This document shows, piece after piece, positions 1-64,000 of a stretch of DNA of 64,000 nt (the stretch's first letter is position 1; each line of letters begins with the position of its first letter). A program made the translations under genes and the position numbers. This DNA comes from Botryllus schlosseri (taxonomy: Eukaryota). The notes under the pieces are model-generated. The model was not told where the DNA came from, did no database searches, and worked only from the letters and a program-made list of their open reading frames with translations. Where the stretch lies: NCBI GenBank assembly GCA_051294905.1, contig CM119371.1:26662001-26726000 (forward strand), in the 5' to 3' direction.

Positions 1-54
1 CACGGAACCGAGGCCAGTTGTTATTGTTTTGAGTTGCTTGCTGATGTCGTATAG

Positions 55-1600: not shown

Positions 1601-1608
1601 TCGTATAG

Positions 1609-2666: not shown

Positions 2667-2744
2667 TTAATAGCAATAATAATGAGATAATAATTAATAG
2701 CAATAATAATGAGATAATAATTAATAGCAATAATAATGAGATAA
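2667..2744. repeat. 27-bp tandem repeat, ~3 copies
   Basis: TTAATAGCAATAATAATGAGATAATAA x3; it produces the YYLIIIAIN repeat in ORF 2648-3034. Confidence 0.95.
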
Positions 2745-5699
2745 CAAACAGACAATTGATGGCCTAGTAATGAATGCAAACTTACCTTGATTTGGTTGGA
2801 AATGTTGCCCAAACAACTAGCAGATGCAGCTCCCACTGCTACTCCATAAGTTGGCACATCAGATGGGTCAGCATCTATCACAAAACAACTTATCAAGCAT
2901 GGTATAAATATGAATGGAAATGACATACTTACAGCCCAGTGTTGGTATCGTGGTGCGAGGAACTGGATAAAGCTCAAGCACAGTGCTTTCAGAAAAACCT
3001 TAATATAAAAGGAACTGGATATTGGTATGCGCATTCACACTCACATATACGGATAGATAGATAAATACCTATTTGATGGCTTGGCACATCACTGCTCGTT
3101 TGATTTTCTCTGTGTTCCAAAAGAATGGTGCTATCATTTGTTTCACAGCCTGCAGCTCACTCTGGTGGCACATTGCACAGCTATATAATAATTTTTACAT
3201 GGACTGATTATGCTACTATGTCGATACTATGACAGGGTAGCAAATCTGTGAAAATCAATGTTGAATTGACATATATCTCAAAACATTTGGATTACTGAAG
3301 CGTTAGCATGTACTGCACTTTGAATATTATTGGCATATATCACTTCACATCAATGGCCCCTTTAAGCTGCATACATGCGCAAATGCGCAGTGCTGACACG
3401 GTTTATGCACACAGAAAATCTGAAGTCATGACCCTTTTTTAGTCGTTACGCACTGTTTTCCGAGGGTCTGCGTAGTGCAGTGGTTCCCAACCTGTGGTAC
3501 GCGTACCACTAGTGGTACGCGAAGGTCTGCCAGATGGTACGCGAGCAGATTCTGCTTTTTTCGGTCGAATGGAGTTATTATTCCAGGTGGTGGTGATTTT
3601 AAGTTTTTTGTTGTTATTTCATTATGTTGTTCTTCTTGCGACTGGTGGTGAAAAAACAATTCCACGCATTCCATCAACCCTGGCTGATATTGCCAAGTTC
3701 AGGGCTCGGCAACCTTACGCATGCAGATTGCCAAAATGACAAAATATTACCAACTCGCGTGCCAAACATTTTTAATTTTGTCATATTTTCGTTTCAAGCA
3801 AGGAATCTCACCAACCGCTTAATTTCAGCTGGCAAGTACGGCATCAGTTACGCCAGTGAGTCTTAAAGTAGCCTATTGGTCGCAAAGGGAATAAATTTTG
3901 GTCGCTCCCGCACTACATGTAATATGCTTAATATACGTAATATATGAATCATTTATTTTTAGTCGCGCTGTGATCAATAGCCTATTCTGTGGTTGCTTTG
4001 ATCGTTTCCAAGTCCGCTGTATTCGGTTCCATATAGCCAATAAATGACAGGCACATAAATGTTGTTACGATGATATGGCCTGATGATGAAAAATGTGCCC
4101 AACCCTGTATCGTACATGTCGGTTTGATGTCACATTAGGGTTGGTCTGGCACTAGATTTGTCTGCAAAGCACGAAAGGTTGCGGTAAAGCGGTCAAGGTC
4201 GTTGCTCCAGATATATTGGTATCGATAAGACGTATCAGACGAAACTAAAAGAATATTTCCTTTCGTGATACGAACACGATTCCAAATTCGAAGTTCGACA
4301 CCGGACTCATTATTATCTTCGGCGGACCTCATTTGATACGTGGGGACCAAGCTGGGGCGAATTTACCATACGGCGCATGGGCAGTGTACACATCAATGTC
4401 GAACGTTTTGACCGGAATGTAGCGGTTATTTTATTCATTAGCGCCCCCATTCATTTTGACAGCGCACTAACCGCACGGAGTCGAATGGTCGCATGTTTCC
4501 CAGAAACGTTATGTCCAGGTCATGTCTCCTAGCGTGAAAATGCTCAGCGCCGAAATGCCGGTTCATATAGCATACTATAGTCGTGCTCCCGCAGGCTGCA
4601 CTTAAGCGTTCGACCGTTTTCATACGACATTATAAATTGCCATTCTTTCATAACTGCTAATACGGGTGGACTCATTTCTGCACATTATGCAAATTTAAAA
4701 AATATACTAAAGAAATCTGGTCCCAGTAAATCACGCAAAGCGCGGAAAATTTTGCTAGATAAATAAAATCTGCCAAAAAGACTCTATTTAGTGTTGATTT
4801 GCGAAATAATTTGGGGTCGCAGTAGTATAGTTGGTATCGTTTGTTACCGCCCCTCAGGCTATTTAGAATGTAAACACTCTCATAATATAATTAACGTCGG
4901 ACTATGGCCGGTCCATGCATCCGAGAAATAAATAACATTCATTATACGTTAGATGATACTTTCCTTAGATAATATAGTATGTGTATTTAGGACTAATATT
5001 CTAATATGTGTATTTAGGACTAATGCGACTACTTCGAAAACGCGTACTGATCTGTTTTTGGGAATATGAATTCTCGCTTATTCTTATGTGAATTTAGAAC
5101 TTTGTATTTTCGCGGATCAATAATTAATTAATGTTCATTTATAAACGCGTAACAGAAATCACGCAAAAGTCGATATTACTTTGTGATGATTTTGATGTTG
5201 TTCCATACCGATTGGGAAGATAGCACACTCAATTTCGTAACCAACTACATAATCCCTAGTTACGTAGTCAGACGCATAACGGCATTTACGCAAAATCGGT
5301 ATTGCTTAGCGATAATTTTGATCACTATGTTTTATCGCTCGCCGCCAGACTATTGCCGTTTGTATTTATGAACAAATTTCGAAAACTATGATGTCTACGC
5401 AAGACTATATTCGCAAGATATTCTATTATGTGTATTTAGGACTGTGTATTTTCGCGGATAGTATGAGCTCTCAGATAACACTCATCCACATTGAACTATA
5501 GGCGTGGTTATTTGATGATGTATTAAAATTCTACGCACATTTCGCGCGATCAACATAATATTAATACCTAGTAACGATTCAACTTCATGACATTTTCAGT
5601 ATTAAACAGAAATATAGACCTAGAATACTAACTTTTATTCATTAACGTAGTAAAACGCATAACAGAATTCACGCAAAAGTCGATCGGTATTTGCAATAA

Positions 5700-6060
5700 A
5701 GCCTAAAAATTAGAGTCGCATCTTTTCGCAATTTATGCAGCTATTCGCGTAGACTTTGCCGCATTTGCTGTATCTGAAGTAGAATTTCAGCGTCGTTATT
5801 CGCTATAAGCCGGGAAATGCACCTTCGCGCAATTTATATAGCCAAACGCATTAACTTTTCTGCATCTGAAGTAGAATTTCAGCGTCGTTATTTGTTATAA
5901 GCCGAGAAATGTACCTTCGCGCAATTTTTACAGGCAGTCTCACCCACTTTGCTGCGTCTGAAGTAGAATTTCAGCGTCGTTGTTTGCTATAAGCCGGGAA
6001 ATTAGAGTCGCTGCTTCGCGCCATTTTACAGCCAGTCTCACACACTTTGCTGCATCTGAG
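5700..6060. repeat. ~92-98-bp tandem repeat, ~3.5-4 units (mirror at ~23693-24053)
   Basis: TCTGAAGTAGAATTTCAGCGTCGTT recurs at 5773, 5865 and 5957, with a partial copy at 6055. Confidence 0.9.
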
Positions 6061-7140
6061 CTTCATACTAATACATGCATAATTTTTGCATGACGAGAAT
6101 ACGGGTAATACGGTCAATAAACGCCGGAGGCGAGTCATTTAAACCTTGTTGCTAGATAATACCGCTTTCGGCTACAACAAAGTTGCCCTGCAACAAAAAA
6201 TAGAAGCCCTAATGATCATGCAGAGGAAAGTTCAATTATACATCGAATTATTCGAATAGACTATCTACATTGTATAGGTATGAAGTGAAATAGAACGGAG
6301 TTTACGCAAAAGCTGCTATTGATCATAGACCAAGCTTGCTTTCAGAGCTGGAAATTAAATGCACATGAAAATTTAACTAGGTTTCTCCCACACGCATCAA
6401 ATGTAGGCCTACTCAAGTGTTTATGAGGTGGCGAATAGTTCGAAGGTTGTTGGCATGCAAGGACGTCACATAGAATTGTGGAGTTTTCTGTAAACTATAA
6501 TCCAGTGATCTATTTTCAATCACTATACTTTTAATAATCTAAAGTAAGTAGCCTACTTGAATGTCATTAAAGAAAGCAGATTTGTATGAAAACTCGTTAA
6601 ATAGAAGTAAAAGTAGCCTAGAAACATGACTACTTACTGAAAAATCGTTACGTAGAAGTGGGGTTAGTCTACGAACATAACCACTTACTTACTTTGAAAT
6701 CTCTACTTGTACTTGTATTCGTACTTTACCTTTACACGTCGTTTTTTGTATAATGGATACTAATTTTATTAAAAATTAATAAAGTGCGAAAAATTACATT
6801 TTATCCCGGAACGTAGCAGGAAAAATCGTATAAATTTTGTAAAGTAGATGGAAAACTACACTATTCCGATGCAGTAAAGACTCTTACACTCTGGATTTTG
6901 TGCAGTATATACTAATTTTCCATTGCGGAGTATTCCATAAACGTTAATCCAGTGATCCTCCTTCTATTTTCAATCACGATCCGCTTATTATTCTAGGCTT
7001 CGAACCCCACACCCAGTACGTTTTACGGGGATTATTATTTTTGGAATAAATATAGCGTATCGAGACTTCATGAAACTTACTTGGAAATAGTTATTTCTAC
7101 CCTAATTTAATAGATTTCTCAGATATCGTAGCAACGGAAC

Positions 7141-7193
7141 TGGCTTGAGCGAGCGGTTAAGGCGTTGGACTTGAGTTTCAATGAACAAGTGTT
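7141..7193 (+). pseudogene. 5' part of a tRNA-Leu-like sequence (D arm, anticodon arm reading TGA, long variable arm); mirror at 22560-22612
   Basis: GCGAGCGGTTAAGGCGTTGGACTTGAGTTTCAATGAACAAGTGTT resembles the eukaryotic tRNA-Leu(TAA) pattern GCCGAGTGGTTAAGGCGTTGGACTTAAGATCCAAT. Confidence 0.7.
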
Positions 7194-7199
7194 ATAAGT

Positions 7200-7853
7200 T
7201 ACTCATGTTTACAACACAACCTAAACGCAAAGTGCACGAATTTCCATATTGATCAAATACCACAAACTTTGCTGGCTTTCAGAGTTAGTAACTAAGCGCG
7301 TAACAGAATTTACCTAAAAAAGTCAGTACTCCAAAATTTTTGTAAAGTATAGCTTTTTGGCGTTGGATTTAAGTTCCAATGAACAAGTGTTCACATATAG
7401 GTTCGAATCCCACACCCACTACGTTTTACGAGAATTAATATTTTTGGATTCAAATTTAGCGTATTGAGTACTTTTTCTGCCTTTTTCAGCGCATTAGAGA
7501 CGTTTACACTATGGATTTCGTGAGCTTTACTTGAGTTTTATAAATTAACGTAAAAGTAGTCATTTCCGAGTAAGTAAAACGTTCGTATTGTAGGTTCATT
7601 TCTGCTTAATACTATAATTACCATGGAGTTGAAGCAGTCCAATATCAAAAACACCCGAAAGTATTTGTTGCATATAGCTAAAAACCTAATTGAGTACTCT
7701 GAAGAAGTACAAGTTGCACAGTTTGTGGTATTTCTATGACATCGAAATTTAGCTGACCAGAACTTATACTTGAGTACTTCGAAATGTACAAGTACTTTAC
7801 CTTCACACGACGTTTCTGTAAAATGAATACTGATTTTATTAAAAAATAAAAAA
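7200..7853 (+). repeat. ~650-bp internal direct repeat, copy 1 (copy 2 at ~13352-13993; both mirrored in the right arm)
   Basis: Near-identical from TACTCA(T/C)GTTTACAACACAAC to TTTTATTAAAAAATAAAAAA. Confidence 0.92.
7359..7420 (+). pseudogene. 3' two-thirds of a tRNA-Leu(TAA)-like sequence; mirror at 22333-22394
   Basis: Anticodon stem-loop TTGGA-TTTAAGT-TCCAA, variable stem TGAAC-AAGT-GTTCA, and B-box GGTTCGAATCC. Confidence 0.75.
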
Positions 7854-8629
7854 GCACGAAAAATTACATTTTATCCCAAACCATCAGAATACTAAAGTAG
7901 CTTATCACGTATATGGACCTAATACTAAAGTGTTTATGATTTCCGTTCGCTTCAACTTCATGACATTTTCAGTATTAAACAGAATTATAGGCCTAGAATG
8001 CTAACTTTCTTCGTAAATTGGTACTTCTGCCTTAATTTAACGGATTTATCTGAGATCATTGCTTTACTTAATCTCTCCAAAATGTGCATTATACTAGTAC
8101 GTCACCATGTTTGTATGACATCAAAATTTACGTACTTTTCGCTTACCTTATGTTAATAGTGTTCCTCGTCTATCTACACTGTTAAAAAAATACCAGTAAA
8201 TTTACTGCTCAAATAGCAGGCAGCAGTTTTACTGCAATTTGTAAATGTAATTACTGCTTCTAGAAAGTCAATCAAATTACGGTGTTACAGCAGTAAGATT
8301 TATTACTTGTTTGCTAGTAAATTTACTGCAATAGCAGTAAGATCTATTACTGGTTTGCTAGTAAATTTACTGCCTATTGTAAAACTAAAAACTGCTTCCA
8401 GAAGGTAAATGAAATTACGGCTAATAGCAGTAGGATTAATACTGTTTCCTAGTAAATTTACTGCCAATTTGTAAAACTAAATACGACTCTTTGGCGCAAT
8501 ACGGAATCACGGCATATATGTTGCCTGATTCGCTGGTAAATCCACAGACAATTTCCTCGACCCCAGACCTGGCCACGAGCCCACACTAATCATCAATTGC
8601 AGCGTCGAAGCATTTATTGATGTATTCAT

Positions 8630-11600
8630 GGAGCTTTTTTCAGCAACTTTGCAAACTTGATCACTTTAGGGTAAACGTCAGTTTGTCTTCTTTTAGATGA
8701 CTTTTGAGCCTTGCTCTGCTATCCCAGCAAAGTACCTGTAAATGAAATAGATATTACTAACAAGGAAATAGAATCAAAGATTGCCAGCTGTGAGTAATGG
8801 TGTATTCTAGCACAGGGGTGGCCAAGCTTTTCAGCCTATGGGCCGCATAAGATTTACGAACCATTGCGCAGGCCACGTCAATATTGATGACCATTCAGTA
8901 GTCCTCCAATGAAGAGCGAACCAGATGAGGTAACGGTGAAAACGACACTAATATTACAGCGCATCAAAATCGATAACAATTGTGTTATTAAAATACGGAG
9001 TACATAGTCGCGGCAAGCGCGAAAATTTCTCAAGGTAATGAATGAATTCGGACTTCGGTCAATAATAATGGCACTTGAAATATTGTGGGTCATCTCCATA
9101 TCGCGCTGGGCTCATTTGGCTTGGCAATGACTGGATTGATTATATTGATATTTTAGTCATCAACATCCTGTATTTCACAGTCAGGCTGATCAATTTTTGG
9201 TTGGCCTTGCAAGTTCACAATAAATTACCTGGGTAATATATTTTTTGAAATTATAACTAACTTCGAGAATTACTTCGTGCGCCACTCAAATTCTTCTCGC
9301 GGGCCACGGTTTGGCCATCCCTGATTTACTTTGACCAGGGTTGGCCAATTTAGAAAATTACACCGTGGCTGGTCACTCTCACGGGGCCCTCGGGTTGGCG
9401 AAGCACTACGAAGCACTTCTACACAAGCATTTTAGTGGTTATGGGATGCATCAATTAGGTAATTGATTACTTCTACTCGAGTAGCATCAGAGACTGCTTG
9501 GGACAAGAATTAAAGATAGAAGTTGTCGTCTTGTAAAGCATGGAAGGTAGGCATAGTCGAGATCAGCACTGTTTCGGGGAGTCTAGGTGCACAATTATTA
9601 TCAAATAAATTCAGTATAATCTGTTTCAATTGTGGTCTCACTCTCGCTCATAGCTCACCTTTGCATGAACCTTTGCTGTTGCTTCTTCTGGGTACTCCAT
9701 ATTGAAGACATAGAAGTAGACGAAGAAATAAGCTACTGCAGAGTAGAAGGATTCCGTCGAATAAATGATCGATTTTTCGGCGGTTACCGGAAACTTTTCT
9801 GTAGAGTGGACAGTCGAGCCTAAAAATGCACGGGTATTATAGTCACATCAGCATCCTAATAAATTATCCAATTTAGAGGTGTTTATGGTAAACCAGTGTT
9901 GGAATGACTCGAGTCATGACTTGACTCGAGTCACCTTTTTCGTACGATTCGACTTGACTCGTGTCAATTTGCTAAAATGACTTGACGTATCAGAAAGTTG
10001 AACTGACTCGTGACTCGGGGCCTAATTCACGAGTCAATTTCAAGTCATAAAGTTATCAAATAAAGTTGCCAAATTCTCAGTGACTTAAATTGTGAGTTTT
10101 GTTCGATGCATTCCGTCGGACGGACTGGTAGCGCAGTTACACTTTCGAATGATCGTACCGTTTCAAGACTCCATTTAATAACTCGACTACTTGGTTTGAT
10201 AATAATGAGTGCAGGGCAAAATAGGATTAACACTGCAAGTACCCCAGCGGCATGTAGTGAAGTGCGTTTCCGGGCGACAGTGACGTCATCGATAAGGAAA
10301 AATTATGACGTCGCATGACTCTCGTAAAAAAATAAAAGTCGGCGCCTATGATGGTAAATAATTCCTCTTTTATATGAGTGCTCACTACTCATGTAGATTT
10401 GGCCAACTGGCTACACCAACTTTCGACGCTAATTCCTAAAATTATATAACGCGTGTCGCTAACGTGTTTATGTAATCATAGGCATAAAATGTCACTTCCA
10501 AAACTATTGCATTGCAATCTAAACAATGACTTACCGAATGCGATCAAGAACGAATGGTATGGAGCCTCCTCCACAAAGTCTTCTTGAACACTTTCCTGAA
10601 AACAGATATGGATTATTAGTTATTAAAGCACACCTTCATCGACATCACTTGGACTTGTTCGATTGCTGGAGCAAGGCACATTGATTCGACTACTCGAATC
10701 TTAATCAAGTATTAATTCTAATGATTTGAGTCGAGTAGAAGACATTTTTTCGTGTACTGAAAGTATACGCGTCCCTCCACTGAAAGTTGATTTATCAACG
10801 AGAATTATAGTTTCGATACTAATTTATATTTTTTGAAGCTTTGAAACATTGATTGTACCATATATCAAAGTGTACGATACATAGCCTATAGTACAAAAGC
10901 TAACAAGGTTACTGGACGTTGAACATTTCCGAAGTCCTGAACAACATTTTAAGATTTGGACTAGGAATGTCCTTTCATGAATTGAGGAATGGACAAGAAG
11001 GACAAGAAGGCACACAAGGGGAATTAACGCACAAATCCTGGTATAGGCTAACATCTAAAAAAAGGCTTTTTGCTTACCATTCGCCAGAATATAACTCCAG
11101 CATGCCAATAGACTAGTGGCCGTATATGATTGTGATTGAAGCATTTTGCATATTGTCGAAACTCTTTCCATCGTGGTGACAACCTTCAGTGACTTCACGT
11201 TTTTCAACGCCCTGCAAAGAGAACGGGCACCTTTTATAAAATGTAAGATGACAGTGAAGTGAAGAGAGTTGTCTGCAAACATTCACAACTCAATATTGAA
11301 ACGCAACTAATTTTGAGGAGCTTTTCTCGGCGACAGACTATGTAATCACAATCGAGATATATAGTGACTAAGCATTATCTATATCAAAATATAGGGATAG
11401 CTATTTATACTTACTTTTGAATGAGGCACCAGTTACCGTCCATCATGCGAATGGTGTGTTCCTTTCCATCAACCCTACCAGTAAGCTTGGAATAATGCGC
11501 AAGCGCAACCATATACTGATCTTCAAACAGGATGAGCCACTTAATCCTGATTGCGGATACCGACGCACGTTCACTGATTATTGATCGCTCCAGCGGATAA

Positions 11601-12200
11601 GTTGTTGTCATCAATGATCTCGCTCTTCCAGTGTCTCGTACGGTTTTCCTGATTTCTTCGAGCAGCCATTGCTGGTCTATTTCTAATTCTTTCAGATTAT
11701 TAGTATAGGGGGCGACCAATTAATGCAGCCGTATTCTTGCACATCATTCTTTTTTATTTTATTAACACTTGAATTGTTCATATTCTGGTCCTTCGATTTA
11801 TTCTTTCGCCGTTGATTTTCCACTCTATTATATAGTTGGCTCGCAAGTGAATCGTGACGACTGCCGATACAAACACCACAAGTGATATAATAATTCCCCG
11901 ATTCATAGCTCCGTTTACACTTCACAGCATTGGTATCAAGCACCCGGTCGTCAGCAATTGAACTATTCAACGCATTTTCAGTACCATAGTAAGCAGAACC
12001 ATATTTTCATGGTGTTCAATAACGGTATGATTTCGGCTAACGTGGCTCGAAAACGACGAAACCACAGCATACCTTTAAGAACCGCTGCAAAATGCGCGGA
12101 CATTAAACTATAATTCCAGATCGAATATGGCCTTTCAAGTGACAAAACAGCAGATGTTGACGCCTTGACGGGAGTTTCATTCCACAAATTCTCACAGGGC
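8630..12200 (-). pseudogene. Spliced, decayed accessory gene of an animal EnSpm-type element (SAMD3-like uncharacterised family)
   Basis: Peptides IGSRHDSLASQLYNRVENQRR...EYGCINWSP and TYPLERSII...KWLILF...HYSKLTG. Exons 10535-10595 (ESVQEDFVEEAPYHSFLIAF), 9659-9819 (AYFFVYFYVFNMEYPEEA...FMQR) and ~8640-8735 (YFAGI..GSK...PKV) have canonical AG/GT edges. Family assignment is from recalled motifs only. Confidence 0.65.
8813..9323. mobile_element. hAT-type MITE nested in the EnSpm element; related copy at ~58323-58700
   Basis: TIRs CAGGGGTGGCCAA / TTGGCCATCCCTG. Internal sequence (AAGAGCGAACC, GCATCAAAATCGATA, CGCTGGGCTCATTTGGC) is shared with 58323 onward. Confidence 0.7.
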
Positions 12201-13510
12201 ATCTCAAATCCGCTTCCGTTTGTTTGTGGAATACCACCAAATATGCCGCGCCACCAGCACGAGTTTCGTTTTAATCCCAGGCTAACAAACGCCCAATCCT
12301 AAATTCGCGGTGCGGTACTTGAGCTGCGTGAACTAAAACTTCTCCGTTTTTCAATCAATCCTGGCGAATTCTCCAATCGTCACGAGCAACCTTCCATTTA
12401 GTTCCTTATTCTGGGAAAGAAACCCTTCTGTCACACGCGCAACCTTTCGCTGAAAACAACCGCTGTTTCCACTCTGGTGATTCCTAACCTCAATCTTCAT
12501 CGCTAATCCCCAGGGATTTTGAACAAAAGGACTATCGCTGGCTTCCCGCCTGAATAGTTCCTGTTGTTATTAAAGTTGAAGATGACGATAAGCCTTAAAA
12601 TCGATGTCCCACATTACATTCTATTCTGAAGCCTACTTGGTGTTGGAACGGCTGGCCTACTGAAATTATGTCAATATGAACCTATTGATTGTTGCGATAT
12701 TGAATTCCTATTTCTATTAAATGCCTATTTTCAATATGCTGATTTTCAGCAATCTCTGACACGCCCTACTAAAACCGTACTGGCAAGATCGTAGCACTCT
12801 ACGCGTTTGCGCAACCCTACTGTATATGGAATTACAATTTTATCAAAATCTTTCTTTCTTGACCACAAGAAATGCCCGCCCATACATGTGACAAATGAAA
12901 TAATTTACGGATTGTTTCGGTGAATCGAGTTACGATCTCATGTCCGTAATTGAATACAGCGTAAAGAACAGTAAATTTCCTTACGTCCACGTATGTAAAC
13001 TCGTTTACTGCTCAAAAAGGTGTAAATTTACGGATTTTTCTAACAGTGTACTTTATAAGATTCAGTGTAGAAATTCAGTAGAAATGTAAACACGCTTGAA
13101 TATGACTAAAACTCGCATAAGCATTACACTATGATTGATTATTTCAATTAGCAAGCATAATAGATCATCACCTAATGAATGCAAGGACGAGTTCGCAAGT
13201 GGGAAATAAGTCAGATCGCTCGAAATAATAGTCCCGAGTTGCGTAAAGCTAATGTTCTCCCCGTAGCTGAGATCAAGGTTAGCAATTTCGCCTATGGGAA
13301 TGAGGTATTAGAAAATACCAATTCGAGAGGTTCTCTACTAGATAGTGCCTATACTCACGTTTACAACACAACCTAAACGCAAAGCGCACGAATTTCCATA
13401 TTGATCAAATACCACAAACTTTGCTGGCTTTCAGAGTTAGTAACTAAGCGCGTAACAGAATTTACCTAAAAAAGTCAGTACTCCAAAATTTTTGTAAAGT
13501 ATAGCTTTTT

Positions 13511-13570
13511 GGCGTTGGATTTAAGTTCCAATGAACAAGTGTTCACGTAGGTTCGAATCCCACACCCACT
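13511..13570 (+). pseudogene. tRNA-Leu(TAA)-like fragment within direct-repeat copy 2; mirror at 21057-21116
   Basis: GGCGTTGGATTTAAGTTCCAATGAACAAGTGTTCACGTAGGTTCGAATCCCACACCCACT. Confidence 0.75.
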
Positions 13571-13994
13571 ACGTTTTACGAGAATTAATATTTTTAGATT
13601 CAAATTTAGCGTATTGAGTACTTTTTCAGCGCATTAGAGACGTTTACACTATGGATTTCGTGAGCTTTACTTGAGTTTTATAAATTAACGTAAAAGTAGT
13701 CATTTCCGAGTAAGTAAAACGTTCGTATTGTAGGTTCATTTCTGCTTAATACTATAATTACCATGGAGTTGAAGCAGTCCAATATCAAAAACACCCGAAA
13801 GTATTTGTTGCATATAGCTAAAAACCTAATTGAGTACTCTGAAGAAGTACAAGTTGCACAGTTTGTGGTATTTCTATGACATCGAAATTTAGCTGACCAG
13901 AACTTATACTTGAGTACTTCGAAATGTACAAGTACTTTACCTTCACACGACGTTTCTGTAAAATGAATACTGATTTTATTAAAAAATAAAAAAT

Positions 13995-14227
13995 ACCTAG
14001 AGCAATTATAAAACGCATCTTCGAAACTTTTGGTCTAGTTCATCCGCTTGCATTTCGAAACGAACCATCACGACAAGACTCTAACCCCCCACATTGAAAA
14101 GGAATAAGGCATCGGGTTTGCAGAAAAAAGAAGAAGCAAAAGATGCTAAGTAAAGTGGCTACCAGGGTTTTGTAATTACTCGAGTCAACCAAAAGTTTCG
14201 AAGATGCGTTTTATAATTGCTCTAGGT
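13995..14227. repeat. Perfect 40-bp local inverted repeat (13995-14034 / 14188-14227)
   Basis: ACCTAGAGCAATTATAAAACGCATCTTCGAAACTTTTGGT and its reverse complement. Confidence 0.95.
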
Positions 14228-15589
14228 GTGAAATAGACATCGCACTCTTGCGGGGAAACAACACGAATTCAGTCTTCACACCGCAGAAACACAGCCGCTT
14301 GGTTAACATCACAAAACCACAATTGAACTCAAGATTGCCATACACGGAATCGCTGTTAACGATGTCTGACTGCGGCGTTTCGACGAGTAACGAATTCTCG
14401 TATTTAGTATTGATTGTGACACATACTCAAAACAGCGACAGTTTTCACAACCCGGTACATACATTGAACCAACTGATGTAAGGTGAAACATTACGTTCAC
14501 ACCAAAAAAAAAGTTTGCAGGGTATGACCACCACCAACATATAGAGTAGTGAGTGAGTAATTAAACTACATACCCCGATTTTACTATATTCCGAGATCCG
14601 GATCACGATTCAAGTCTACCTGAGAATCCGAACTACCCTGTGAAGTTGATATATCAAGTTGTGAACCGTGAAAGGGTTGTAATCTCGTTGAAATAGTGTG
14701 CGACACATTTTTTCACAAGTCGAATGCATGTCGGTTCATACTAAGACCATGTTACGGTCAAATATGTGTGTTTTTCTGTCTCCAAGTCAGCTACCCCCAC
14801 ATTGAATGTACAGAGTCGGTGCATGTATGAGACTTCAGAACATGAATTTGTAATCCATGATGCTTGTAGTGCCGGCCATGATGTTATCCATGATGTAATT
14901 AATGTCACACACCTCCTTTACGCGAATACTTGGTATCTATGAACAATCGTGAAGTATACTGGATGTGTAATGTCTTGTTATTTTCATGGAAACACGGGGG
15001 TGTAACATGTTTGAATATTGTTCATTGGTTTGTCGATTCAGAGTTGATATCCGGATCCGGTTAATACTTTCTCGGGTTTCCGATTTCAAACTGAACGGCG
15101 GGATATGTATTGACCAATAAAGAGTGACACAATATAGTAAACATGTGTGAGAAAACTCACAAGTAACCCGGATTTGTTAGCGCGACGGGGACATAAATTC
15201 AACCATTATCCGTGTACCAAGCAGTTACCAAAGTCATGGAGGTTGCTAATTTCAACATATTGACTCTGTAGGAGGCTAAAGCACGAACCGGGACACACAC
15301 AGACACACACACCAGGACACACAATATACGTCGATTTCCAAAGCATACATTTCGATATACAAGAGCATATTGTTATTTCATGTGGTTAACTGTTGATATA
15401 GATGCGATGCGATCGACGCGGGTATACTCTGAAACCGGTTGTCCGTTTATATGAGAAAAGATGCTGTGAAGGGCTTTAAAAAGCGGCAATTGAGCATAGT
15501 TGTGTCGAGTTACCGAATGATTTTTTCCTTACATCAAAACAACTAGAATGTGTAACTACATTAAACACGTATCTAAATGAGCTCCAGGG

Positions 15590-16620
15590 CATTGTGATTA
15601 TGCAGCATACCAAATTGCATCACACATTTACATTTCATGATGGAATAACTTTAAAACTAATTCAGTTCTATAGCAACTTTTGCCTACATCTGTTTCGCTA
15701 GCGTGTACAACTGTACATGTACATATACATAGTCAGCTTTAATACCAGAATTACCATGCTAATATGTGAATCCTCACCTTGAAACTTGGTACGTAGTTGT
15801 AGGACATTGTGATTATGCAGCATACGAAATTTCCTCACGCATTTCATAATGGAACAACTTTAAAACTAACGCGGCTCCTACATCGACATTTTGCGTACAT
15901 CTGTTTTGTGGGGGCGTATAGTACGTACCCATACATAGCCAACTTTAATAACGGAATTACCATGCTTAACATTGAATCCCAACTCTAAACTTGATACGTA
16001 GTTGTAGGACATTATGGCAATGCACCATGCTAGATTTCATCATCCCACATCTAATGATGGAGCACCTTTGAAACTATCGCAGTCGAATACCGACTTTTAC
16101 GCATATCTGCTTTTCGTGAACACAGCATATACCCATACATAGTCAATTTTAATAACAGAATTAGTATGCTAAACATCAAATTCTCACCTTGAACGTTGGT
16201 ACACAGTTGTAGGACATAATAAGAATGAACCATACCAAATTTCGTCACACATTTCATGATGTAACACCTTCAAAACCAACGCAGTTCTATACAGACTTTT
16301 GGCTAAGTCTGTTTTTCCGTAGCGTAGCACGTACCTATGCATAGTCAACTTTAATAACGGAATTACCATGTTAATAATCGGCTCCCAACCTTGAAACTCG
16401 CTACACCGTTGTAAGACATTATGACAATGCACCATGTCAAATTTTGTTACGCATTTCATGATTGAACAACTTTAAAACTAATCCAGTTCCATGCCGACTT
16501 TTGCGGGGGGGCGTAGCACGTACCTATGCATACTCAACTTTAATAACGGAATTACCGAGCTTAACATTGAATGCGCAACTTGAAGATCGGTTCACGGGTG
16601 TAGGACATTATGACAATGGA
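15590..16620. repeat. ~205-bp diverged tandem repeat, ~5 units (mirror ~18007-19037; also ~61080-61625 and ~63010-63680)
   Basis: Anchor GTA(G/A)GACAT at 15799, 16004, 16209, 16411 and 16600. Shared CAACTTTAATAACGGAATTACCATG and CCAAATTT motifs. Confidence 0.9.
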
Positions 16621-17293
16621 ACATACCACTGCGCTAACTTTCAGAATTGTTAAGTATAGTACTCGCACTTTGTGAGAATACCCAAGGAGGTTTTTTTGCC
16701 TACATGCACCAAATACTCTCAAGTCCTTATGATATTGGAGTACATCAACTTCATGATAGCTAGAGTATTGAACAGAAATGGACCTAGAGTACTAACGTTT
16801 TACTTACTCGGAAATGACTACTTCTACCTTATTTTAAAGGATACCTCGTTCGAAGCGAAATTTATGTGGTTTTGGATAATATCCAAGATGTAGGCTCACT
16901 TTGAAGGGTACTTCCTAAAACTCAAATATTGCGCAAAAGTACAATTAGGGATCTAAAAGTAACTAATATAGATGGTTATTTCCGTAGATAACTTACCCTC
17001 TACTCAAGAGGTTTTTCAGGTGGAACTACCTACTTTTAGGACTGTTTATGTCAAAGTAGTTTGAGCTTACGTTTATATCACCTTGACAAGTGACATTATC
17101 AGACATGAAAATGATATTATCACGTAATACCAGAAGTTAACACACGTCAATGTGTTTCGGAATTCACGAGAAATTGCTTACTAAGAGAAGTATATTCTTG
17201 TGTACACAATAGCGGAGAGAATATTTAAAATGTAGTAAGCAGGCCGATGGGTATTCATTGAGTTGTATAAGCATAAAAAACATTCCCGCGCGC

Positions 17294-17332
17294 GTCTTAG
17301 GATTAGGTGGTAGGGTTAGGCAGGGTTTAGGA
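17294..17332 (+). other. 39-nt palindrome spacer (hairpin loop) of degenerate telomere-like repeats
   Basis: GTCTTAGGATTAGGTGGTAGGGTTAGGCAGGGTTTAGGA, between CCCGCGCGC and GCGCGCGGG. Confidence 0.9.
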
Positions 17333-20300
17333 GCGCGCGGGAATGTTTTTTATGCTTATACAACTCAATGAATACCCATCGGCCTGCTTACTACATTTTA
17401 AATATTCTCTCCGCTATTGTGTACACAAGAATATACTTCTCTTAGTAAGCAATTTCTCGTGAATTCCGAAACACATTGACGTGTGTTAACTTCTGGTATT
17501 ACGTGATAATATCATTTTCATGTCTGATAATGTCACTTGTCAAGGTGATATAAACGTAAGCTCAAACTACTTTGACATAAACAGTCCTAAAAGTAGGTAG
17601 TTCCACCTGAAAAACCTCTTGAGTAGAGGGTAAGTTATCTACGGAAATAACCATCTATATTAGTTACTTTTAGATCCCTAATTGTACTTTTGCGCAATAT
17701 TTGAGTTTTAGGAAGTACCCTTCAAAGTGAGCCTACATCTTGGATATTATCCAAAACCACATAAATTTCGCTTCGAACGAGGTATCCTTTAAAATAAGGT
17801 AGAAGTAGTCATTTCCGAGTAAGTAAAACGTTAGTACTCTAGGTCCATTTCTGTTCAATACTCTAGCTATCATGAAGTTGATGTACTCCAATATCATAAG
17901 GACTTGAGAGTATTTGGTGCATGTAGGCAAAAAAACCTCCTTGGGTATTCTCACAAAGTGCGAGTACTATACTTAACAATTCTGAAAGTTAGCGCAGTGG
18001 TATGTTCCATTGTCATAATGTCCTACACCCGTGAACCGATCTTCAAGTTGCGCATTCAATGTTAAGCTCGGTAATTCCGTTATTAAAGTTGAGTATGCAT
18101 AGGTACGTGCTACGCCCCCCCCGCAAAAGTCGGCATGGAACTGGATTAGTTTTAAAGTTGTTCAATCATGAAATGCGTAACAAAATTTGACATGGTGCAT
18201 TGTCATAATGTCTTACAACGGTGTAGCGAGTTTCAAGGTTGGGAGCCGATTATTAACATGGTAATTCCGTTATTAAAGTTGACTATGCATAGGCACGTGC
18301 TACGCTACGGAAAAACAGACTTAGCCAAAAGTCTGTATAGAACTGCGTTGGTTTTGAAGGTGTTACATCATGAAATGTGTGACGAAATTTGGTATGGTTC
18401 ATTCTTATTATGTCCTACAACTGTGTACCAACGTTCAAGGTGAGAATTTGATGTTTAGCATACTAATTCTGTTATTAAAATTGACTATGTATGGGTATAT
18501 GCTGTGTTCACGAAAAGCAGATATGTGTAAAAGTCGGTATTCGACTGCGATAGTTTCAAAGGTGCTCCATCATTAGATGTGGGATGATGAAATCTAGCAT
18601 GGTGCATTGCCATAATGTCCTACAACTACGTATCAAGTTTAGAGTTGGGATTCAATGTTAAGCATGGTAATTCCGTTATTAAAGTTGGCTATGTATGGGT
18701 ACGTACTATACGCCCCCACAAAACAGATGTACGCAAAATGTCGATGTAGGAGCCGCGTTAGTTTTAAAGTTGTTCCATTATGAAATGCGTGAGGAAATTT
18801 CGTATGCTGCATAATCACAATGTCCTACAACTACGTACCAAGTTTCAAGGTGAGGATTCACATATTAGCATGGTAATTCTGGTATTAAAGCTGACTATGT
18901 ATATGTACATGTACAGTTGTACACGCTAGCGAAACAGATGTAGGCAAAAGTTGCTATAGAACTGAATTAGTTTTAAAGTTATTCCATCATGAAATGTAAA
19001 TGTGTGATGCAATTTGGTATGCTGCATAATCACAATGCCCTGGAGCTCATTTAGATACGTGTTTAATGTAGTTACACATTCTAGTTGTTTTGATGTAAGG
19101 AAAAAATCATTCGGTAACTCGACACAACTATGCTCAATTGCCGCTTTTTAAAGCCCTTCACAGCATCTTTTCTCATATAAACGGACAACCGGTTTCAGAG
19201 TATACCCGCGTCGATCGCATCGCATCTATATCAACAGTTAACCACATGAAATAACAATATGCTCTTGTATATCGAAATGTATGCTTTGGAAATCGACGTA
19301 TATTGTGTGTCCTGGTGTGTGTGTCTGTGTGTGTCCCGGTTCGTGCTTTAGCCTCCTACAGAGTCAATATGTTGAAATTAGCAACCTCCATGACTTTGGT
19401 AACTGCTTGGTACACGGATAATGGTTGAATTTATGTCCCCGTCGCGCTAACAAATCCGGGTTACTTGTGAGTTTTCTCACACATGTTTACTATATTGTGT
19501 CACTCTTTATTGGTCAATACATATCCCGCCGTTCAGTTTGAAATCGGAAACCCGAGAAAGTATTAACCGGATCCGGATATCAACTCTGAATCGACAAACC
19601 AATGAACAATATTCAAACATGTTACACCCCCGTTTTTCCATGAAAATAACAAGACATTACACATCCAGTATACTTCACGATTGTTCATAGATACCAAGTA
19701 TTCGCGTAAAGGAGGTGTGTGACATTAATTACATCATGGATAACATCATGGCCGGCACTACAAGCATCATGGATTACAAATTCATGTTCTGAAGTCTCAT
19801 ACATGCACCGACTCTGTACATTCAATGTGGGGGTAGCTGACTTGGAGACAGAAAAACACACATATTTGACCGTAACATGGTCTTAGTATGAACCGACATG
19901 CATTCGACTTGTGAAAAAATGTGTCGCACACTATTTCAACGAGATTACAACCCTTTCACGGTTCACAACTTGATATATCAACTTCACAGGGTAGTTCGGA
20001 TTCTCAGGTAGACTTGAATCGTGATCCGGATCTCGGAATATAGTAAAATCGGGGTATGTAGTTTAATTACTCACTCACTACTCTATATGTTGGTGGTGGT
20101 CATACCCTGCAAACTTTTTTTTTGGTGTGAACGTAATGTTTCACCTTACATCAGTTGGTTCAATGTATGTACCGGGTTGTGAAAACTGTCGCTGTTTTGA
20201 GTATGTGTCACAATCAATACTAAATACGAGAATTCGTTACTCGTCGAAACGCCGCAGTCAGACATCGTTAACAGCGATTCCGTGTATGGCAATCTTGAGT

Positions 20301-23300
20301 TCAATTGCGGTTTTGTGATGTTAACCAAGCGGCTGTGTTTCTGCGGTGTGAAGACTGAATTCGTGTTGTTTCCCCGCAAGAGTGCGATGTCTATTTCACA
20401 CCTAGAGCAATTATAAAACGCATCTTCGAAACTTTTGGTTGACTCGAGTAATTACAAAACCCTGGTAGCCACTTTACTTAGCATCTTTTGCTTCTTCTTT
20501 TTTCTGCAAACCCGATGCCTTATTCCTTTTCAATGTGGGGGGTTAGAGTCTTGTCGTGATGGTTCGTTTCGAAATGCAAGCGGATGAACTAGACCAAAAG
20601 TTTCGAAGATGCGTTTTATAATTGCTCTAGGTATTTTTTATTTTTTAATAAAATCAGTATTCATTTTACAGAAACGTCGTGTGAAGGTAAAGTACTTGTA
20701 CATTTCGAAGTACTCAAGTATAAGTTCTGGTCAGCTAAATTTCGATGTCATAGAAATACCACAAACTGTGCAACTTGTACTTCTTCAGAGTACTCAATTA
20801 GGTTTTTAGCTATATGCAACAAATACTTTCGGGTGTTTTTGATATTGGACTGCTTCAACTCCATGGTAATTATAGTATTAAGCAGAAATGAACCTACAAT
20901 ACGAACGTTTTACTTACTCGGAAATGACTACTTTTACGTTAATTTATAAAACTCAAGTAAAGCTCACGAAATCCATAGTGTAAACGTCTCTAATGCGCTG
21001 AAAAAGTACTCAATACGCTAAATTTGAATCTAAAAATATTAATTCTCGTAAAACGTAGTGGGTGTGGCATTCGAACCTACGTGAACACTTGTTCATTGGA
21101 ACTTAAATCCAACGCCAAAAAGCTATACTTTACAAAAATTTTGGAGTACTGACTTTTTTAGGTAAATTCTGTTACGCGCTTAGTTACTAACTCTGAAAGC
21201 CAGCAAAGTTTGTGGTATTTGATCAATATGGAAATTCGTGCGCTTTGCGTTTAGGTTGTGTTGTAAACGTGAGTATAGGCACTATCTAGTAGAGAACCTC
21301 TCGAATTGGTATTTTCTAATACCTCATTCCCATAGGCGAAATTGCTAACCTTGATCTCAGCTACGGGGAGAACATTAGCTTTACGCAACTCGGGACTATT
21401 ATTTCGAGCGATCTGACTTATTTCCCACTTGCGAACTCGTCCTTGCATTCATTAGGTGATGATCTATTATGCTTGCTAATTGAAATAATCAATCATAGTG
21501 TAATGCTTATGCGAGTTTTAGTCATATTCAAGCGTGTTTACATTTCTACTGAATTTCTACACTGAATCTTATAAAGTAGATAGACGAGGAACACTATTAA
21601 CATAAGGTAAGCGAAAAGTACGTAAATTTTGATGTCATACAAACATGGTGACGTACTAGTATAATGCACATTTTGGAGAGATTAAGTAAAGCAATGATCT
21701 CAGATAAATCCGTTAAATTAAGGCAGAAGTACCAATTTACGAAGAAAGTTAGCATTCTAGGCCTATAATTCTGTTTAATACTGAAAATGTCATGAAGTTG
21801 AAGCGAACGGAAATCATAAACACTTTAGTATTAGGTCCATATACGTGATAAGCTACTTTAGTATTCTGATGGTTTGGGATAAAATGTAATTTTTCGTGCT
21901 TTTTTATTTTTTAATAAAATCAGTATTCATTTTACAGAAACGTCGTGTGAAGGTAAAGTACTTGTACATTTCGAAGTACTCAAGTATAAGTTCTGGTCAG
22001 CTAAATTTCGATGTCATAGAAATACCACAAACTGTGCAACTTGTACTTCTTCAGAGTACTCAATTAGGTTTTTAGCTATATGCAACAAATACTTTCGGGT
22101 GTTTTTGATATTGGACTGCTTCAACTCCATGGTAATTATAGTATTAAGCAGAAATGAACCTACAATACGATCGTTTTACTTACTCGGAAATGACTACTTT
22201 TACGTTAATTTATAAAACTCAAGTAAAGCTCACGAAATCCATAGTGTAAACGTCTCTAATGCGCTGAAAAAGGCAGAAAAAGTACTCAATACGCTAAATT
22301 TGAATCCAAAAATATTAATTCTCGTAAAACGTAGTGGGTGTGGGATTCGAACCTATATGTGAACACTTGTTCATTGGAACTTAAATCCAACGCCAAAAAG
22401 CTATACTTTACAAAAATTTTGGAGTACTGACTTTTTTAGGTAAATTCTGTTACGCGCTTAGTTACTAACTCTGAAAGCCAGCAAAGTTTGTGGTATTGGA
22501 TCAATATGGAAATTCGTGCACTTTGCGTTTAGGTTGCGTTGTAAACATGAGTAACTTATAACACTTGTTCATTGAAACTCAAGTCCAACGCCTTAACCGC
22601 TCGCTCAAGCCAGTTCCGTTGCTACGATATCTGAGAAATCTATTAAATTAGGGTAGAAATAACTATTTCCAAGTAAGTTTCATGAAGTCTCGATACGCTA
22701 TATTTATTCCAAAAATAATAATCCCCGTAAAACGTACTGGGTGTGGGGTTCGAAGCCTAGAATAATAAGCGGATCGTGATTGAAAATAGAAGGAGGATCA
22801 CTGGATTAACGTTTATGGAATACTCCGCAATGTAAAATTAGTATATACTGCACAAAATCCAGAGTGTAAGAGTCTTTACTGCATCGGAATAGTGTAGTTT
22901 TCCATCTACTTTACAAAATTTATACGATTTTTCCTGCTACGTTCCGGGATAAAATGTAATTTTTCGCACTTTATTAATTTTTAATAAAATTAGTATCCAT
23001 TATACAAAAAACGACGTGTAAAGGTAAAGTACGAATACAAGTACAAGTAGAGATTTCAAAGTAAGTAAGTGGTTATGTTCGTAGACTAACCCCACTTCTA
23101 CGTAACGATTTTTCAGTAAGTAGTCATGTTTCTAGGCTACTTTTACTTCTATTTAACGAGTTTTCATACAAATCTGCTTTCTTTAATGACATTCAAGTAG
23201 GCTACTTACTTTAGATTATTAAAAGTATAGTGATTGAAAATAGATCACTGGATTATAGTTTACAGAAAACTCCACAATTCTATGTGACGTCCTTGCATGC

Positions 23301-26300
23301 CAACAACCTTCGAACTATTCGCCACCTCATAAACACTTGAGTAGGCCTACATTTGATGCGTGTGGGAGAAACCTAGTTAAATTTTCATGTGCATTTAATT
23401 TCCAGCTCTGAAAGCAAGCTTGGTCTATGATCAATAGCAGCTTTTGCGTAAACTCCGTTCTATTTCACTTCATACCTATACAATGTAGATAGTCTATTCG
23501 AATAATTCGATGTATAATTGAACTTTCCTCTGCATGATCATTAGGGCTTCTATTTTTTGTTGCAGGGCAACTTTGTTGTAGCCGAAAGCGGTATTATCTA
23601 GCAACAAGGTTTAAATGACTCGCCTCCGGCGTTTATTGACCGTATTACCCGTATTCTCGTCATGCAAAAATTATGCATGTATTAGTATGAAGCTCAGATG
23701 CAGCAAAGTGTGTGAGACTGGCTGTAAAATGGCGCGAAGCAGCGACTCTAATTTCCCGGCTTATAGCAAACAACGACGCTGAAATTCTACTTCAGACGCA
23801 GCAAAGTGGGTGAGACTGCCTGTAAAAATTGCGCGAAGGTACATTTCTCGGCTTATAACAAATAACGACGCTGAAATTCTACTTCAGATGCAGAAAAGTT
23901 AATGCGTTTGGCTATATAAATTGCGCGAAGGTGCATTTCCCGGCTTATAGCGAATAACGACGCTGAAATTCTACTTCAGATACAGCAAATGCGGCAAAGT
24001 CTACGCGAATAGCTGCATAAATTGCGAAAAGATGCGACTCTAATTTTTAGGCTTTATTGCAAATACCGATCGACTTTTGCGTGAATTCTGTTATGCGTTT
24101 TACTACGTTAATGAATAAAAGTTAGTATTCTAGGTCTATATTTCTGTTTAATACTGAAAATGTCATGAAGTTGAATCGTTACTAGGTATTAATATTATGT
24201 TGATCGCGCGAAATGTGCGTAGAATTTTAATACATCATCAAATAACCACGCCTATAGTTCAATGTGGATGAGTGTTATCTGAGAGCTCATACTATCCGCG
24301 AAAATACACAGTCCTAAATACACATAATAGAATATCTTGCGAATATAGTCTTGCGTAGACATCATAGTTTTCGAAATTTGTTCATAAATACAAACGGCAA
24401 TAGTCTGGCGGCGAGCGATAAAACATAGTGATCAAAATTATCGCTAAGCAATACCGATTTTGCGTAAATGCCGTTATGCGTCTGACTACGTAACTAGGGA
24501 TTATGTAGTTGGTTACGAAATTGAGTGTGCTATCTTCCCAATCGGTATGGAACAACATCAAAATCATCACAAAGTAATATCGACTTTTGCGTGATTTCTG
24601 TTACGCGTTTATAAATGAACATTAATTAATTATTGATCCGCGAAAATACAAAGTTCTAAATTCACATAAGAATAAGCGAGAATTCATATTCCCAAAAACA
24701 GATCAGTACGCGTTTTCGAAGTAGTCGCATTAGTCCTAAATACACATATTAGAATATTAGTCCTAAATACACATACTATATTATCTAAGGAAAGTATCAT
24801 CTAACGTATAATGAATGTTATTTATTTCTCGGATGCATGGACCGGCCATAGTCCGACGTTAATTATATTATGAGAGTGTTTACATTCTAAATAGCCTGAG
24901 GGGCGGTAACAAACGATACCAACTATACTACTGGTCGCCTATACGAGCTTTGTACATTTAAAAAACTTTTGTTTCACTTCTTGCAATACATGGTTATAAT
25001 ATCTTGTTTCCGTCAGATCATTTGGCGAGCCATGAAAAATCATCTCGCGTGCCACAAATGGCACGCTTGCCGGAGTTGGCCGACCCCTGGCCTATAGTTT
25101 AATAGAATTTGTTATTACACCTCGCACAGGACAAATACGTGATTATGACGTCATAAATGGCAGAAAAATTTTGACCGGCTTCGGAACGCGTAACTTATGT
25201 AGGTGGTACGCGAGCACTGCGTAAAACCTCGAAATGGTACGTGGGTGGAAAAAGGTTGGGAACCACTGGCGTAGTGAGTTCTTGAGTGTACGCACAGACT
25301 CGTCAAAAATTAGAGGGAACATTGCTTCACATCTATAGCAATTCACTAACAACTTCATGCAAAGTCATGTCATTTTTCTTTCCGAAACTTCTGGATCTTT
25401 ATCCAGTATGCTGAAATTCGGTGCGCGTGCAGTGAACGGAATATCAATACAATGCTGGTTGAATAGACACATATTGATCAAAGTTCCATGTAGTCGGCAC
25501 TATTCTAGAAAGTAGCAGTTAAACATATTTATGACAATGCTCATAGGGGTGGAGCGAAAATGGATATTGAGGGGAACCCTGCAATCAATCACAGTTGCGT
25601 GCAAGTGGTGCAACATTGATTAGGCTCAACAAAATGAGCATGATACATATTTTCCATTTTCTGGTGATGCGTCGTGTGTTCACTTTTTGGCTATAACCAC
25701 AGCAAAGCCAAACTGTCAAAACGTCAACGTGAATAAGTTAAAAGACGTAACCAGTCGAGAAAACTATAATGATGAGTTGACGTAGCATGTAGGCTATCAA
25801 TAAAGGATCTGTTGATCTGCCGCAACCTAAAATCTCATCTTGGGGCTTCTTCGATACATGCACTATATTAACTGATGTTCCCCATGACCACTGATCAGCA
25901 TCATTACCCGTAGCGGATTCTTATCGCTGACCTTTCTTTGCCAAAATGGGCGGGATTCGCAAGTCCAACGCTAGGCACACCTTTACGCCTTACCCCAAAT
26001 ATCACTTCCCGTGTCTCGTAACCATAGTCATATCATATTAGTAACCGAATCGATTGGAGCCAGCGAACGCGGGTTATGGTGGTCATGGGGAACATTGCTT
26101 GATACTATATGGTGCGGTTATGGAAGAAGTGCTGATGTGTCCTGTGTGCCTCAGGGCTCTGGCTATCCATTTGAAATGAAATCCGTTCAGTATACGAAGA
26201 CCCCTGCAGCATTCCACTGTAAATCCCACTATAACGGTATATGATACCAACTTGTCACGTTTGTGGTATAAACATTGTTCCAAACTGCCTGACATCAATA

Positions 26301-58800: not shown

Positions 58801-59204
58801 TTGGGCGTATTAGGAATTTTCAGGAGGGGGTGAGTAGTGTTATTATCGACCTTATAGACCGCCCCTCAGGCTATTTAGAATGTAAACACTCTCATAATAT
58901 AATTTGCGTCGGACTATGCCCGGTTTATGATGTCATCACAGAGGAATTAGGCGACTGCAATGTTTTGTGAATTTCAATACCGATTTTCCATGTGTATTTA
59001 GCAATATGTATTGAATACCTATGCGATTTTGAGCGCTGCGACTTGATAATATCAATCCCTACGCTTCTGATGTATGATTTTTTGTGATAAGGGCCTTGAT
59101 AACATTCAGAGTCTGCAACGATTGTTTGGATATACATTATAGCAATTCCCCACTAAACTATAGGCGGTTATATTACTCTATTGGTCAGAGATAACTCATC
59201 CGTT

Positions 59205-63500: not shown

Positions 63501-64000
63501 TGTCAAATTTTGTTACGCATTTCATGATTGAACAACTTTGAAACTAATCCAGTTCCATGCCGACTTTTACGGGGGCGTAGCACGTACCTATGCATACTCA
63601 ACTTTAATAACGGAATTACCGAGCTTAACATTGAATGCGCAACTTGAAGATTGGTTCACAGGTGTAGGACATTATGACAATGGAACATACCACTGCGCTA
63701 ACTTTCAGAATTGTTAAGTATAGTACTCGCACTTTGTGAGAATACCCATGTAGGTTTTTGCCTACATGCACCAAATACTATCAAGTCCTTATGATATTGG
63801 AGTACATCAACTTCATGATAGCTAGAGTATTGAACAGAAATAGACCTAGAGTACTAACGTTTTACTTACTCGGAAATGTCTACTTCTACCTTATTTTAAA
63901 GGATACCTCGTTCGAAGCGAAATTTATGTGGTTTTGGATAATATCCAATATGTAGGCTCACTTTGAAGGGTACTTCCTAAAACTCAAATATTGCGCAAAA

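Follow-up and report, generated by a model that had tools for sequence, protein, structure and literature searches.

The DNA analyzed here is a 64,000-nt stretch of the Botryllus schlosseri genome (assembly GCA_051294905.1, contig CM119371.1, forward-strand positions 26,662,001 to 26,726,000; hereafter the window), in which base-by-base reading revealed a single inserted element at window positions 4821-24932, a 15.2-kb palindrome spread over 20.1 kb. The element starts at 4821 with AGTAGTATAG and ends at 24932 with CTATACTACT (longer reads of the tips: AGTAGTATAGTTGG... from 4821 on the left and ...CCAACTATACTACT up to 24932 on the right). An earlier note on this DNA, made from the sequence alone, had described two inverted arms of ~7.6 kb separated by a 39-nt spacer, with AGTAGT/ACTACT ends and a 6-bp target-site duplication (TSD), GGTCGC. 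The arms and spacer were confirmed by both a repeat finder and the base-by-base reading, and the ends and the duplication likewise proved to be correctly described (Table 1). Specifically, the repeat finder returned three collinear inverted pairs (4820-8177/21576-24933, 13049-16511/18116-21578, and 16505-17293/17333-18121), with the innermost arms lying 39 nt apart. Over 7,600 nt, the two arms are 99.87% identical, with 9 substitutions and one 1-nt indel between them; the "100%" given by the repeat finder is a rounded value.

The 15.2-kb palindrome spans 20.1 kb because a 4,872-bp transposon later entered its left arm. This nested transposon has inverted ends of ~28 nt starting CACTGTTA, with TA at 8175-8176 and at 13049-13050, and the right arm retains an intact, empty TA site at about 21576-21578. 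Base composition shows no break across the element. In each arm there are one tandem array (92 nt x 2.6), a ~1.27-kb duplication (with 373 nt repeated), and a zone of degenerate repeats whose period is about 200 nt. At the axis, the sequence reads ...CATTCCCGCGCGC, then the 39-nt loop, then GCGCGCGGGAATG...; taken as single-stranded DNA, the 159 nt around the axis are predicted to pair into a perfect stem of 60 bp, leaving the 39-nt loop open (z = -22.6).

The DNA flanking the palindrome (4300-4820 and 24933-25090) is a copy of another repeat family, which allowed the insertion site to be compared with unoccupied paralogs. The left flank had 49 matches, five of them at 90 to 93% identity over all 521 nt. 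In both of the paralogous empty sites that were fetched, the sequence is unbroken (...TTTGGGGTCGCCTATACGAG...; over a longer stretch, ...AATTTGGGGTCGCCTATACGAGC...) and GGTCGC is present once. The whole palindrome thus entered this site in one piece, duplicating 6 bp of the target, as the earlier note had proposed.

The element shows no coding capacity. The longest stop-to-stop frame between 4000 and 26000 is 118 amino acids, and no frame of 150 amino acids or more occurs anywhere in the window, so that the claim of "no long ORF" (open reading frame) also held. None of the 27 arm frames of at least 55 amino acids matched Pfam at E ≤ 0.01, and a search of 4000-26000 against Rfam gave no matches. 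The nested transposon contains three consecutive minus-strand frames of about 100 amino acids (11414-12298), and none of its 23 frames of at least 55 amino acids matched Pfam at the same threshold. Elements of the Maverick/Polinton type were reportedly described by Kapitonov and Jurka in 2006. Autonomous members are defined by genes for a protein-primed DNA polymerase B (pPolB), an integrase, an ATPase, a protease, and capsid proteins; this set is missing from the window element, which could therefore only be a non-autonomous derivative.

Is the window copy one of a kind? A 27-nt subterminal word from the element occurs 58 times in the forward and 63 times in the reverse orientation in the genome (121 termini), whereas the reversed control word occurs 0 and 0 times. 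Positions were listed for 100 of the 121 termini, and the pairing and size counts rest on these: they include 38 adjacent plus/minus pairs, whose median size is 15.1 kb; 24 of these pairs measure between 12 and 18.5 kb. The remark that ~15 kb falls within the Polinton size range thus applies to the family and not only to the window copy. When the terminal 300 nt were used instead, 41 matching places were found, mostly as plus/minus pairs 8 to 27 kb apart. We estimate the family at about 50 to 60 whole-element palindromes. In ten fetched copies, matches to the window arm are mirrored on both halves. The window itself holds the start of a second copy (Table 1), whose left flank reads ...GGGGTG and whose other end lies at about C1:26730636-26730662, ~9.8 kb downstream.

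The ends of the family are uniform. All 20 distinct readable tips start with AGTAGT (locus L015, with no match to the tip pattern, is outside this count), and a difference between the two tips of one element was seen in a single copy only (C12a, AGTAGT versus AGTAGA). Perfect and distinct 6-bp TSDs flank 11 of 12 pairs, and the remaining pair matches at 5 of 6 positions; other palindromic copies with TSDs of their own, which the earlier note had listed as something to check, therefore exist. By hand count, the family TSDs have about 58% G+C compared to about 38% for the window, and three Polinton-type TSDs are also GC-rich. The combination of (AGT)2...(ACT)2 ends and a perfect 6-bp TSD, put forward in the earlier note as a Polinton hallmark, agrees with the criteria used to map the ends of vertebrate Mavericks (PMC8097293).

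Within individual copies, inverted stretches are 99.1 to 100% identical. The long ones (3.8 to 6.9 kb) show 99.3 to 100% identity and the shorter ones (430 to 1,586 nt; copies C12a, C12b, and C8a) 99.1 to 99.5%. These values are based on inverted matches of at least 300 nt whose query start lay to the left of the subject end, a filter that dropped some symmetric rows (e.g., C6a and C12a) whose symmetry is seen in the comparison with the window arm. Long frames occur in the copies only within nested retroelements, and no transposase-like frame was found in the ten fetched copies or in the window copy. These retroelements lie at L033:8246-9796, L047:3493-9688, and L041:2406-6725: copy C12b hosts a nested long interspersed nuclear element (LINE) with endonuclease, reverse transcriptase, and RNase H; the 3′ part of a LINE is present at the axis of C11a; and C8a carries a reverse transcriptase element with weak GIY-YIG matches (below the Pfam cut-off), flanked by 1.2-kb inverted repeats.

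Alignment of 19 termini revealed a sharply stepped profile. Mean pairwise identity is 1.00 at positions 1 to 6, drops to 0.47 at positions 7 to 28, returns to 0.97 at positions 29 to 60, and stays at 0.90 to 0.94 up to position 300. The hypervariable 22 nt (window 4827-4848) are nevertheless identical at both ends of every pair read; if the family is old, they may simply be a spacer without constraint, or else a special process of end renewal may be at work. At the other extremity of the arm, the 240 nt adjacent to the axis are found again in 9 of the 11 copies compared (window copy included), and in 5 of the 11 both sides of the axis are intact, with a homologous loop of 39 to 46 nt and the same GC clamp. 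Since several diverged copies share the axis block and the loop, the palindrome has been inherited as such and was not made anew in each copy. Side by side with the CCCGCGCGC clamp, the window loop (17294-17332) and the loops of four copies contain TTAGG(G)-like units in one orientation only. The loop at the center of the palindrome is telomere-repeat-like, with degenerate TTAGGG fitting as well as TTAGG.

In the 12 copies examined, the two arms evolve in lock-step. In the closest group (four copies, arm positions 1-3066, both arms aligned), the arms of different copies differ by 1.1 to 1.7%, and between other copies the arms are rearranged. Among the variable ungapped columns of this four-copy alignment, 72 are matched between the two arms in each of the copies, and 14 contain an arm-to-arm difference. 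Similarly, both arms of copy C11a have a 75-nt insertion close to the tip. These mirrored variants indicate that some process copies one arm onto the other along lineages.

Public reads and contigs provided a limited view of the family. In three short-contig runs of DNA type, the family is highly repeated in several samples, the contigs being too short to span the arms. In a single-cell RNA run (about 3 in 100 reads), the arms reach at most 1.4-fold mean depth, with 3.6-fold in the arm bin that holds the left junction of the nested transposon and about 9-fold over 9636-10302 inside that transposon. No pile-ups of read begins or ends were seen at the palindrome tips in these short contigs and the one sparse RNA run, and the subterminal word has no exact match in the viral contig or metagenome contig collections.

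Table 1. Window coordinates of the palindromic element, its parts, and the second family copy
Feature	Position	Strand	Remarks
TSD, left copy, GGTCGC	4815..4820		Base-by-base reading; single in two paralogous empty sites
Left arm, outer part (arm positions 1-3356)	4821..8176	+	AGTAGT, 22-nt hypervariable stretch, then conserved subterminal block of ~270 nt
Nested 4,872-bp transposon, left arm only, outside the palindrome	8177..13048		CACTGTTA-type inverted ends, TA duplication
Left arm, inner part	13051..17293	+	Reaches GC-rich clamp ...CCCGCGCGC at the axis
Asymmetric 39-nt loop (spacer), four TTAGG units	17294..17332	+	Homologous to loops of four other copies
Right arm, 7,600 nt, unbroken, ends ...ACTACT	17333..24932	-	Reverse complement of left arm
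TSD, right copy, GGTCGC	24933..24938		Base-by-base reading; paralogous empty sites
Second copy of the same palindrome family, start	58833..64000	+	Begins AGTAGTGTTATTATCG; continues beyond the window

The genome also contains Polintons. One of them, at C1:5923771-5942033, is 18,263 bp long, has a 443-nt terminal inverted repeat (TIR) with tips AGTAGTGTAGTAG..., and is flanked by the TSD GCCGAG; its pPolB frame of at least 1,118 amino acids matches PF03175 with 32.9 bits (cut-off 25.8). Among 423 candidate pPolB matches, 41 were scored, 36 of which are free of internal stops and 92 to 100% identical, suggesting a large and apparently young Polinton population. A second Polinton subfamily ends AGTAGTAGTTATG... 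(tip AGTAGTAGT). The AGTAGT tip and the 6-bp TSD are common to the Polintons and the palindrome family and, given that pPolB elements carry the same tip and TSD length, true Polintons of this type are abundant in the genome. As regards an autonomous element with the same ends, the likeness of the pPolB elements to the palindrome family covers the AGTAGT tip and the length of the TSD and stops at the hexamer (41 of 423 candidates scored). Around the C1 Polinton lies a 1.06-kb direct repeat that is 99% identical between its copies (C1:5922084-5923151, 0.6 kb to the left, and C1:5943939-5945000, 1.9 kb to the right). A repeat family in the right flank of the C1 Polinton (L051:7575-8010) is also represented in the window (49636-50036 and 55443-55861), at 77 to 78% identity.

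A sister family stands between the two groups. Its members, C15:753707-767608 (13.9 kb, TSD GACGAT) and C7:29903974-29911740 (7.8 kb, TSD matching at 5 of 6 positions), end in the Polinton TIR at 95 to 96% identity over about 440 nt, and inward of this TIR they continue as an inverted repeat of non-Polinton sequence for at least 1.8 kb (C15) and at least 1.4 kb (C7). One interior module of the sister family is 80% identical to the arm of the palindrome family. It follows that Polinton ends on gene-less elements with long inverted repeats exist in this genome, and the sister family closes part of the gap between the palindromes and the Polintons.

Taken together, we consider it probable that the palindrome is a gene-less, non-autonomous foldback element of the Maverick/Polinton system, inserted by Polinton integrase in trans, with arms kept alike by arm-to-arm templating, and that it lives as a large parasite on the resident Polintons. 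According to this model, the retroviral-type integrase of the abundant Polintons would insert the whole palindrome in trans. The parts acting in cis would be the invariant AGTAGT tip, the subterminal block from position 29 to about 300, and possibly the 240 bp beside the axis; the rest of the arm is a non-coding mosaic. The likeliest route of arm templating would be a stage at which a single strand folds back on itself. This would correspond to a full-length version of the "panhandle" proposed for protein-primed strand-displacement replication: mismatches between the arms would be repaired and the duplex end restored for a new round of synthesis. The integrase donor, replication by pPolB, and the hairpin intermediate are inferred; any packaging would be of the same standing.

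Several results weigh against this model. No pair of palindrome-family termini (100 of 121 termini listed) encloses any of the 41 pPolB genes scored. Sequence searches between the two kinds of element were likewise negative: blastn of the arm against a 10-kb Polinton stretch (L051) gave nothing, and tblastn with 39 Polinton frames gave nothing in the arm, the ten fetched copies, or the window. Tip positions 7 to 24 resemble two Polinton tips only at chance level (3 of 36 comparisons with P < 0.05 versus shuffles), and a likeness there that was suggestive by eye was dropped on this basis. As for the integrase, none of the 150 matches listed from a search for the rve family lies inside a known Polinton, and the gene was not seen in the examined part of the C1 Polinton (about 8.8 of 18.3 kb). 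Finally, the arms also diverge in place, by 0 to 0.7% within copies, and homogenization during replication and chromosomal gene conversion appear to fit the arm sequences alike.

A further-reaching version of the same idea, which we entertain only as a tentative possibility, is that the palindrome is a gene-less satellite of a Polinton virus, whose heritable unit would be one 7.6-kb arm plus the loop, replicated, packaged, and integrated by a helper. The displaced strand would snap back, and the open end of the resulting hairpin would mimic a Polinton origin; the terminal protein and polymerase of the helper could then copy through the loop to give the 15-kb palindrome again, a genome-sized product that the helper capsid might package and the helper integrase might insert. 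Folding back would keep the arms identical, with the axis block and the telomere-like loop serving as turn-around signals. Such a snap-back replication cycle would be plausible for the palindrome. The literal form of this proposal, a snap-back (copy-back) defective genome that arose by a recent template switch of the Polinton polymerase, with each arm a copied Polinton end, is a different matter. Although a full-length inverted complement fits the definition of a snap-back defective genome (PMC13506859) and the palindrome tips are of the Polinton type, no trace of Polinton sequence or genes is present in the arms (compared with about 8.8 kb of the 18.3-kb Polinton), and several diverged copies have the axis, the loop, and the 240-nt block in common, so the palindrome is inherited and does not arise afresh at random switch points. 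For the palindrome family, this literal form is already largely refuted and, in our judgment, very improbable.

The palindrome could instead be a foldback cut-and-paste transposon from some other DDE superfamily that makes 6-bp duplications, sharing AGTAGT with Polintons by coincidence and having its arms homogenized by gene conversion. Non-autonomous copies consisting almost only of two long inverted repeats are known from such transposons, i.e., Galileo "2-TIR" (PMC3573991) and Tm1/Foldback (PMC3169594), the Polintons and the palindrome family have only the hexamer in common, and no helper with the 300-nt ends of the family was found among the 41 scored pPolB loci and the listed termini. However, the groups just named duplicate 7 bp (Galileo, PMC3573991) or 9 bp (Tm1/FB, PMC3169594), whereas the exact (AGT)2 tip combined with a 6-bp TSD has been published as the signature of Mavericks (PMC8097293) and is present on both Polinton subfamilies examined. 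In addition, the sister family bears a genuine Polinton TIR together with an interior module found in the palindrome family, and the frames in the ten fetched copies and the window copy are those of nested retroelements, with none resembling a transposase. On balance, we regard this origin as unlikely. An assembly artifact caused by a chimeric fold-back read and a local inverted duplication can both be set aside with near certainty: chimeric long reads do yield near-identical arms around a short spacer, but the element has a 6-bp TSD and two paralogous empty sites, 10 positions distinguish its arms, only one of which carries the 4.87-kb insertion, and at least 11 other copies with the same architecture and their own TSDs reside at other loci. 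The empty sites, the arm differences, and the one-sided nested insertion together remove both readings.

A non-autonomous foldback element of the Maverick/Polinton system would have few precedents. Our literature searches turned up no report of palindromic, foldback, or non-autonomous Polintons; a survey of a lizard genome describes non-autonomous Polintons as apparently absent (PMC3014272), and non-autonomous Maverick/Polinton derivatives in general have hardly been described. Here, whole-element palindromes 5 to 10 times longer than known foldback transposons share the genome with dozens of Polintons that appear intact. Should the helper relation be true, they would offer a natural test of Polinton replication and integration, of the panhandle or fold-back intermediate proposed long ago for protein-primed replication, and of which few terminal bases the Polinton integrase and priming machinery need. 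Moreover, perfect 7.6-kb inverted repeats could destabilize the genome and give rise to hairpin RNA.

In comparison with known systems, the closest likeness of the palindrome is to Maverick/Polinton elements, with which it shares the end motif, a perfect 6-bp TSD, TIRs, a size of about 13 to 17 kb, and the company of resident pPolB elements with the same tip. According to Barreat and Katzourakis (2021; PMC8097293), vertebrate Mavericks have 5′-(AGT)2//(ACT)2-3′ or (AG)3//(CT)3 end motifs, perfect 6-bp TSDs, TIRs of 46 to 1,447 bp, and sizes of 16.9 ± 1.7 kb, with the end repeats assigned a presumed role in "jumping-back" during protein-primed replication. Unlike these elements, the palindrome has no genes, and its inverted repeat is the whole element, with 7.6-kb arms compared to a 443-nt TIR in the resident Polinton, to whose subterminal sequence its own is unrelated. 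The sister family is similarly gene-less, with long inverted repeats, AGTAGT tips, 6-bp TSDs, and the one module at 80% identity, but it carries a true Polinton TIR (95 to 96% over ~440 nt), whereas the window family has its own conserved subterminal block.

In overall form, the palindrome resembles Drosophila FB, nematode Tm1 (PMC3169594), and Galileo 2-TIR (PMC3573991), whose non-autonomous copies consist almost entirely of two long inverted repeats with a short middle; Tetris is a further transposon of foldback structure (PMC4079207). The arms of foldback transposons also evolve in concert, and their interiors are variable mosaics. The differences are equally clear. FB and Tm1 have a 9-bp (8 to 10) TSD and arms of short tandem repeats (PMC3169594), in contrast to the 6-bp TSD and single array per arm of the palindrome, while Galileo and the P superfamily have a 7-bp TSD and TIRs of up to about 1.25 kb (PMC3573991), compared to 6 bp and 7.6-kb arms. 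These foldback transposons are about 1 to 3 kb long versus 15.2 kb for the palindrome.

Defective adenovirus DNA is reportedly associated with the work of Daniell and colleagues. The palindrome has in common with snap-back/copy-back genomes (PMC13506859) and with the panhandle model (PMC11886824) a full-length inverted complement capable of forming a hairpin and a duplex end as the sole origin. The panhandle was proposed for adenovirus and PRD1 and has also been invoked to restore homology between ends, with direct evidence for it lacking even in model systems (PMC11886824). In contrast to snap-back genomes, however, the arms of the palindrome are not derived from a helper, and the element is found integrated, passes on its palindromic form by inheritance, and has split into different lineages.

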